Shown here piece by piece: positions 1,149 to 1,479 of a stretch of DNA of 64,000 nt. Source of the DNA: a virus; IMG/VR virus record IMGVR_UViG_3300021425_003021, positions 1 through 64,000 of that record. The stretch is one strand, 5' to 3'. The notes beneath the pieces were generated by a model. The model made no database searches. It was not told where the DNA came from and worked only from the letters and a program-made list of their open reading frames with translations. Every line of letters begins with the position of its first letter. The first letter of the stretch is position 1. Made by a program: the position numbers and the translations under genes.

Positions 1149-1152
1149 TATG

Positions 1153-1158
1153 TATTTA
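1153..1158 (-). promoter_or_regulatory. T4-type late promoter (TAAATA)
   Basis: TAAATA in the intergenic space upstream of the 706-1071 gene. The motif recurs before most structural genes. Confidence 0.7.
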
Positions 1159-1189
1159 TCAAAAAAGAAAAAATGGGTTATAATGTCGT

Positions 1190-1222
1190 AAAAAAAGGCC
1201 TGCTAAAATGTAGCAGACCTTT
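1190..1222 (-). terminator. Rho-independent terminator of the ncRNA
   Basis: AAAGGTCTGCTA...TAGCAGGCCTTTTTT stem-loop followed by a T-run on the minus strand. Confidence 0.8.
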
Positions 1223-1232
1223 CTCTAATAAT

Positions 1233-1447
1233 GTGATAGGTAGGACTAAGGATTACCTACAAGTGCCGTGACATATCCTGTCTACATAACTAGCACAACC
1301 TCACAATAGAATGGTTAGTTCTACTTTCTCTGCAATGCCTTGTCTCCAAGGTCTTACAGCGCCACCACAGCGTGTGAGTCAAGTTACTGCCTATGTGAAG
1401 CAGCGTTTCCTTGCACTATCTAACTAGGACCGTCGTCTTTGTTATGT
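1233..1447 (-). ncRNA. Stand-alone structured ncRNA (~215 nt), possibly manA-like
   Basis: No ORF; has its own sigma70 promoter and terminator. Helices ACAUAAC/GUUAUGU, GAUAG/CUAUC, GUGC/GCAC, CUCAC/GUGAG, CCUUG-GAGA-CAAGG, GUAGAA/UUCUAU, GUAGG/CCUAC. Confidence 0.7.
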
Positions 1448-1451
1448 ACTT

Positions 1452-1479
1452 AATATAGCATATACAAAACAAAAGTCAA
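1452..1479 (-). promoter_or_regulatory. sigma70-type promoter for the ncRNA
   Basis: TTGACT-16 bp-TATATT with an extended -10 (TGc). Confidence 0.65.

Follow-up and report, generated by a model that had tools for sequence, protein, structure and literature searches.

A divergent manA RNA in an uncultured marine Rak2/PA5oct-like jumbo phage is organised as a free-standing gene

The window analysed in this study is a 64,000-nucleotide stretch (positions 1 to 64,000) of IMG/VR record IMGVR_UViG_3300021425_003021, a 105-kb fragment with an estimated completeness of 29% that carries a single manA copy. Its capsid protein is 64-70% identical to those of the cultured jumbo myoviruses Vibrio phage 2.275.O, PA5oct, GAP32 and CBB, and is not of cyanophage type; the carrier is an uncultured marine Rak2/PA5oct-like jumbo myovirus. 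All features of the locus lie on the minus strand. A strong terminator (1725-1700) follows the gp23-type major capsid gene (2915-1743; Pfam Gp23, 6e-100), and next comes ORF64 (1670-1476), which has 64 codons and encodes a small, basic protein with a weak, below-threshold match to the cold-shock domain (CSD; E 0.005). The manA unit comes next, between the capsid gene and the late gene ORF121 (1071-706), the next gene downstream. No terminator was found between ORF64 and manA, so late read-through transcripts may carry manA too. Beyond the manA terminator lie a conserved box, CATTATAACCCATTTT (1170..1185), and, outside the manA unit, the T4-type box GATAAATAC (1152..1160), which is the late promoter box of the following gene, and a freshwater-2 RNA motif (RF02980; 1069..1138), which forms the 5′ leader of ORF121 and ends on its start codon. 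The CATTATAACCCATTTT box was present in most loci that carry the manA subtype of the window and absent from several others. ORF121 and ORF230 had no Pfam or PHROG matches, and Atlas returned viral hypothetical proteins only. A literature search on "freshwater-2" found nothing relevant.

The Rfam model RF01745 (manA) matched positions 1440-1230 (minus strand) with 59.0 bits, relative to a gathering score of 55.2. The match spanned the full model (positions 1-192), with an E value of 1.7e-12 for the whole window. The resemblance to manA that an earlier note on this DNA had suggested was thus borne out by a direct comparison with Rfam. All 4227 Rfam families were scanned; neither ROOL nor GOLLD gave a sequence or model match, and a partial Thr_leader match was rejected because it covers the terminator hairpin only. 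A homologue search with nhmmer revealed manA in 39 related IMG/VR loci, at the position expected from synteny. Most of these homologues scored below the Rfam gathering score; the slot of other relatives contained stronger manA copies, with scores of up to 85 bits. A lineage model, R1, was then built from 31 distinct copies, aligned and annotated with the Rfam structure. This model found 42 instances, seven of them outside the training set, and gave the window copy 209.6 bits. It also recognised manA copies of cultured phages: Mosig, P-HM2 and S-CREM1, all accepted members, scored 91.9, 48.4 and 42.0 bits, respectively, and the manA of P-SSM4, P-HM1 and P-SSM2 scored 33-38 bits. Membership is therefore reciprocal, and the flagged RNA is a genuine but divergent manA copy.

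The window copy has the helices of RF01745, its conserved loops L5 (GUGGUG) and L7 (UAACCA) and, on the 3′ side, its conserved GGUAAUCC...CC segment. It is phage-borne and marine and, like the copies in cultured cyanophages, has a sigma70 promoter abutting the motif. It differs in its score (59 bits, vs 120-186 for the scanned cyanophage copies), in a longer P6 capped by a GNRA tetraloop, in a P8 arm remodelled with two pairing sites, in its carriage by a Rak2/PA5oct-like jumbo phage rather than a cyanophage, and in that it is clearly not a 5′ UTR. The manA family is already known; the window adds to it a divergent copy from a phage group new to the family.

The manA region folded with an MFE of -81.8 (z -3.66), a value matched by 0 of 200 shuffles. 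Covariation was tested on a set of 42 homologues. When the Rfam fold was imposed on their alignment, 79.5% of cells were paired, vs 34-47% with partners slid, and both-side changes were present in 52 of the 64 pairs; the observed values were reached by 0 of 500 shuffles on any measure. The RNA thus has a nine-helix manA fold that covaries strongly among homologues. The earlier note had paired nine helices by hand. Seven of them match the Rfam model and covary: GAUAG/CUAUC, CUGC/GCAG, CUCACA/UGUGAG, GUAGAA/UUCUAU, GUGC/GCAC, GUAGG/CCUAC, and CUGUAA/UUGCAG with its CCUUG-GAGA-CAAGG cap. The other two, ACAUAAC/GUUAUGU and GUCCU/AGGAU, were 40% paired, which equals the level of the slid controls, and were rejected.

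Within the core (1230..1440), which was defined by RF01745, R1 and covariation, the P1 5′ hairpin (1425..1440; GACG loop) is partly paired in the window copy, and this helix had 77% of cells paired across homologues. P3 (1387..1403) carries loop L3, whose ACAUA (1396-1392) complements UAUGU in the P8 arm. P5 (1360..1372) presents L5, of which UGGU (1367-1364) pairs with ACCA (1315-1312) in L7, the loop of P7 (1306..1324). P6 (1330..1359) is a long hairpin, longer than the Rfam consensus, that ends in the GNRA tetraloop GAGA (1346-1343); all 11 of its pairs changed on both sides across homologues, and a GNRA loop was present in 37 of 39. The P8 arm (1263..1296) has an apical AGGAU (1279-1275), the partner of L9, followed just 3′ by UAUGU, the partner of L3. 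The inner P8 helix of the Rfam model is weak in this lineage (47-59% paired). P9 (1240..1260) was 100% paired, and AUCCU (1253-1249) in its loop L9 pairs with L8.

An all-against-all loop test singled out three complementarities, L5-L7, L8-L9 and L3-L8; L3-L5 and L5-L9 also passed, with small effects. L5-L7 was 93.6% paired, with the variants UGGU/ACCA, UAGU/ACUA and GGUA/UACC, and its variable pair was A-U in 20 sequences and G-C in 15. L8-L9 (A8-L9) occurred as AGGAU/AUCCU, CUGAU/AUCAG, CAGAA/UUCUG and AAUGAUC/GAUCAUU, and own partners scored 4.40 vs 3.71 for permuted ones, which was reached in 1 of 2000 permutations. The corresponding values for L3-L8 (L3-A8) were 4.57 and 3.42 (0 of 2000), with more than 10 compensatory variants. 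Two loop-loop pairings had been proposed earlier. The UGGU/ACCA pairing is supported by these data; AAGGA/UCCUU was paired in 62.7% of cases vs 63.0% in shuffles and was rejected as a pseudoknot, the UCCU of that loop pairing instead with AGGAU in the P8 arm. The description of the RNA as "multi-pseudoknot" needs correction, as the loop-loop contacts may be intermolecular and not pseudoknots. Covariation reads the same for kissing loops between molecules as for pseudoknots within one, and on sequence data it cannot tell them apart.

Upstream of the core lies a promoter of the form TTGACT-16-TATATT (1479-1452, minus strand), with 10 of 12 consensus positions and a TG extension. The TGA stop of ORF64 (1478-1476) falls inside the -35 hexamer TTGACT (1474..1479), and the extended -10 element TGCTATATT (1452..1460) predicts a transcription start at ~1445. 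These elements were conserved in 41 distinct upstream regions. TTGAC(T/C/A) was present in 39 and TTGATT in one more; a TATAxT-type -10 was present in 40, with a TGn extension in 30 of those 40, and ended 7 nt before the model start in 26 of the 40. The spacer sequence was only 54% conserved. Because the elements are kept while the spacer drifts, they are evidently under selection of their own. Overall, more than 100 related contigs had a near-consensus sigma70 promoter that ended ~7 nt 5′ of manA. In an independent metagenome set 53 of 60 copies had the promoter as well, and so did six of seven cultured-phage copies, where it had the form TTGACA-N17-TATAAT and ended 5-14 nt 5′ of the motif.

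An intrinsic terminator with a 12-bp stem, a 5-nt loop and U7 (1222-1190, minus strand; -22 kcal/mol, z -7.97) lies 4 nt past the end of the model. A simple scanner missed it because the stem absorbs part of the U run. A terminator lay within 20 nt of manA in 31 of 37 distinct IMG/VR copies and in 36 of 65 distinct copies of the independent metagenome set, and the terminator stems of relatives vary in sequence yet stay paired. No ORF of more than 42 codons overlaps the RNA. The complete, ORF-free transcription unit described in the earlier note is therefore upheld, its promoter and terminator being conserved across relatives. Its transcript, put there at ~215 nt (~1447 to 1233), needs correction: the predicted RNA is ~250 nt including the terminator hairpin, from ~1445 to ~1192. 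Metagenome contigs screened for transcript size were all of DNA length, so they are mute on the ends of the RNA. Judged by this gene structure, manA is a free-standing RNA gene.

In the T4 scheme, sigma70-type promoters serve pre-late transcription and TATAAATA-type promoters serve late transcription. ATAAATA occurred nine times in the window, vs 36 ± 6 expected (a 4-fold depletion), and eight of the nine sites lay 3-24 nt upstream of an ORF. A gene for a gp55-type late sigma factor (18137-17310; 275 aa; phrog_12791, 9e-82) stands behind a GTTGAC-N18-TATAAT promoter. From its sequence distribution, the ATAAATA pattern reads as a clean T4-type late-promoter signature in a Rak2/PA5oct-like phage. 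The sigma70-type promoter of manA places it in the pre-late class under this scheme; the early expression suggested previously fits with this, late genes using ATAAATA and a gp55-type sigma, and we infer pre-late timing for manA. ATAAATA was found 15-17 nt 5′ of the freshwater-2 leader in 49 of 50 distinct loci, with manA present or absent, and relatives that have no manA keep both the leader and ORF121. The downstream gene is thus independent of manA, because it has its own ATAAATA promoter and leader either way. Freshwater-2 was found in 67 related loci and has a much wider distribution among these phages than manA.

Marine and estuarine metagenomes commonly contain the lineage: its 19-nt core occurred in at least 120 contigs, some of them 200-290 kb long. 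Both manA and freshwater-2 were absent from 2.275.O, PA5oct and GAP32, the nearest cultured jumbo phages. Cultured phages had no DNA similarity to the manA unit; when more canonical manA copies served as queries, blastn retrieved nothing beyond Mosig or the query, and the method is therefore too insensitive for this RNA. A pattern scan for the lineage core in 185,579 cellular genomes gave chance matches only and hence no clue to the host. Under R1, 80 retrieved cellular loci contained no convincing manA, the best being one truncated 18-bit match.

Among close relatives manA is dispensable, and the slot 3′ of gp23 is a hot spot of accessory RNA modules, occupied in PA5oct by a homing endonuclease. 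Relatives carry at least three subtypes of manA in this slot. Locus L023 (2681-2854) has a shorter variant, with 43 bits in Rfam and missed by R1, that retains the same promoter and terminator. In L034 (2862-2946) manA is absent and an apparent 3′ half of the manA terminator (agcgggctttttt) lies directly 3′ of the capsid terminator, a sequence arrangement that suggests loss of manA by deletion. Glutamine riboswitch aptamers (RF01739; 48-56 bits) occupied the capsid-downstream slot in L008 (2214-2264), L079 (4234-4281), L048 (2733-2781) and L043 (2660-2707). The L048 aptamer fronts a small ORF of its own, ~28 codons long, behind a TAAATA box, and the idea that the glutamine aptamer is an interchangeable replacement for manA was rejected on this ground.

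The sequence 3′ of manA varies. In P-HM1 the order is that of the window: gp23, promoter, manA, a hairpin with U6, and a TAAATA box. In L085 and L092 a tRNA-Gly gene comes directly after manA, and in S-SSM7 manA abuts tRNA-Gly; in S-CREM1 it is flush between tRNA-Leu and tRNA-Asn. It lies 16-44 nt ahead of a CDS in P-SSM2 (purL), Mosig (rubrerythrin) and P-HM2 (gp32), and some close relatives have a micro-ORF, an ORF or additional RNA modules 3′ of manA and ahead of any terminator; elsewhere in the family manA may therefore act as a leader. In a sizeable minority of the metagenome set, ORF-free conserved modules, a ~20-codon micro-ORF or an ORF lay between manA and the first terminator. manA is nearly always the first element of its transcript, with the exception of S-CREM1, where it is internal to the tRNA cluster; the downstream content varies.

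Several of these arrangements recur. In eight loci (L279, L294, L326, L327, L339, L341, L291 and L312), manA is followed, with no terminator between, by a second conserved ORF-free module, closed by the long stem GUGUUUUAAUAUACACAC...GUGUGUAUAUUAAAGC. A third module often follows the second and also stands directly 3′ of manA in L288 and L318. These arrays are multi-module RNA genes that have no Rfam family. L302, L321, L273 and L344 share a conserved ~20-codon micro-ORF that has an AAGGA ribosome-binding site and separates manA from a strong terminator; its product has the conserved pattern M-x-K-T...I-I-x-W-P...W-G-M. In the RefSeq genomes of P-HM1, P-SSM4, P-HM2 and S-SSM7 (L149-L152), small hypothetical CDSs (PHM1_121, PSSM4_169.1, PHM2_011/012 and SSSM7_180) are annotated over manA; these are probably annotation artefacts.

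ROOL, GOLLD and similar RNAs are phage or prophage ncRNAs encoded by free-standing genes, often beside tRNA genes, and form symmetric RNA-only assemblies. manA resembles them as a free-standing phage RNA gene that lies beside tRNAs in several phages and, in other members, gives RNA-only multimers in vitro; it is 2-4 times smaller and has a different fold. A cryo-EM preprint describes pentamer-based assemblies of manA RNAs, namely octamers, decamers and a 60-mer cage of 430 Å (10.64898/2026.07.01.735769). It names two contact classes, A0F1 and pho34: one class uses L5-L7′ and L8-L9′ kissing loops, and the other uses L5-L7′, L3-L8′ and an L6 GNRA-receptor contact. It describes assembly in vitro only, after annealing of ~3 mg/mL RNA with 10 mM Mg2+, and still terms manA putatively cis-regulatory (10.64898/2026.07.01.735769). 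We mapped the loop numbers of the preprint to the window by helix order and by taking L6 as the GNRA loop (GAGA). With this inferred numbering, the window lineage has complementary L8-L9 and L3-L8 loops and a GNRA L6. It thus belongs to the same family as the cage-forming RNAs and keeps the L5-L7, L8-L9 and L3-L8 complementarity together with the GNRA loop. The window copy, whose assembly is predicted, differs in sequence from every construct of the preprint and appears to combine the contacts of the two classes. Of the functions guessed in the earlier note, "scaffold" comes nearest to what the cryo-EM work suggests; "ribozyme-like" found no support.

A self-associating particle is not the only way to read these loops. 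The same free-standing gene evidence would apply to a monomeric RNA that acts in trans as a protein or metabolite decoy, a sponge or a catalyst, whose loop pairings are intramolecular pseudoknots that lock it in a compact shape and which forms no oligomers in vivo. In Weinberg et al. 2010 (PMC2864571), L5-L7 is shown as a possible pseudoknot; P3, P8 and P9 radiate from one junction, which would make intramolecular contacts sterically plausible; and the assembly conditions of the preprint are far from physiological. However, in every manA structure reported in the preprint the named loop contacts are intermolecular, and several variants form defined oligomers. We consider the monomer unlikely. 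That manA might instead be the 3′ tail of the ORF64 message, or the RNA partner of the weakly cold-shock-like ORF64 protein, is suggested by the lack of a terminator between the two, by the ORF64 stop inside the -35 hexamer, by the CSD match (E 0.005, below cut-off) and by the adjacency of ORF64 homologues to manA in many loci. This connection is very improbable: manA occurs with its full promoter and no ORF64 in L010, L015, L035 and L087, ORF64 occurs with no manA in L066 and L090, and the promoter elements are under selection of their own. ORF64 as an obligatory partner was rejected, since each occurs without the other.

The long-standing alternative is a riboswitch or attenuator leader in which ligand sensing controls read-through of the terminator into ORF121 and the following genes early in infection. 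manA is classed as cis-regulatory in Rfam and was rated a likely riboswitch in 2010 (PMC2864571), some members lie 16-44 nt before a CDS, and the order of promoter, aptamer, terminator and gene is the classic layout, shared with terminating riboswitches such as that for glutamine (RF01739). In those relatives that carry it, however, the glutamine aptamer fronts its own small ORF, unlike manA here, and the manA domain neither overlaps nor competes with its terminator as in a terminating riboswitch. The terminator does not overlap the closing helix. All 32 MFE folds contained both the terminator and manA, base pairs between the 5′ half of the terminator and manA covered 0-11 nt with no pattern, and these folds of manA relatives revealed no conserved antiterminator or expression platform. 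In 49 of 50 loci ORF121 is preceded by a late promoter and a leader of its own, whether manA is there or not; some relatives have nothing in place of manA, and in others tRNA genes or different RNA modules come after it; and no ligand has been reported in 16 years. The location in a 5′ UTR that the Rfam label "Cis-reg" implies does not apply to the window copy, which has its own terminator and a next gene with its own promoter and leader; this mismatch concerns the functional label and not the homology. A riboswitch at this locus is accordingly improbable.

Taken together, the fold, the gene structure and the loop contacts make action in trans as a self-associating particle the most likely reading. 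We propose that manA in the window is probably a free-standing pre-late gene whose product forms an abundant particle of self-associating RNA rather than a riboswitch of ORF121. Host sigma70 RNA polymerase would start at ~1445, at the near-consensus extended -10 promoter and ahead of the late programme, transcribe the 211-nt manA core and stop at the strong intrinsic terminator, to release a discrete RNA of ~250 nt. This RNA would adopt the nine-helix manA fold with its three covarying loop-loop complementarities and the P6 GNRA tetraloop. The loop contacts would then join manA subunits into pentamers, decamers and a 60-mer cage, as named in the structures of other members. That the window copy itself assembles, including in cells, would follow by analogy with those members.

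A more tentative extension, which we regard as possible but rather doubtful, is that the kissing-loop sequences are lineage-specific assembly codes of an early-made RNA nanoparticle that carries downstream tRNAs, RNA modules or a micro-ORF as cargo. Fast-covarying loops such as AGGAU/AUCCU, CUGAU/AUCAG and CAGAA/UUCUG would let the RNA of each phage assemble only with itself, and the cargo reading is suggested by the position of manA, nearly always at the 5′ end of its transcript.

By itself, the locus is one more member of a catalogued family. It adds Rak2/PA5oct-like jumbo phages to the cyanophages and pelagiphages as carriers of manA. Since 2010 manA has counted as an orphan riboswitch candidate, and the RNA-only cages obtained in vitro in 2026 came without biological context. 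The window locus and its more than 100 relatives supply that context from sequence. In them manA behaves as its own gene, driven by a strong host-type promoter and in most cases closed by a terminator of its own, or is co-transcribed with tRNAs, and its inter-subunit loop contacts are under compensatory selection. The same layout exists in cultured phages, namely P-HM1 of Prochlorococcus MED4 and Mosig of Pelagibacter.
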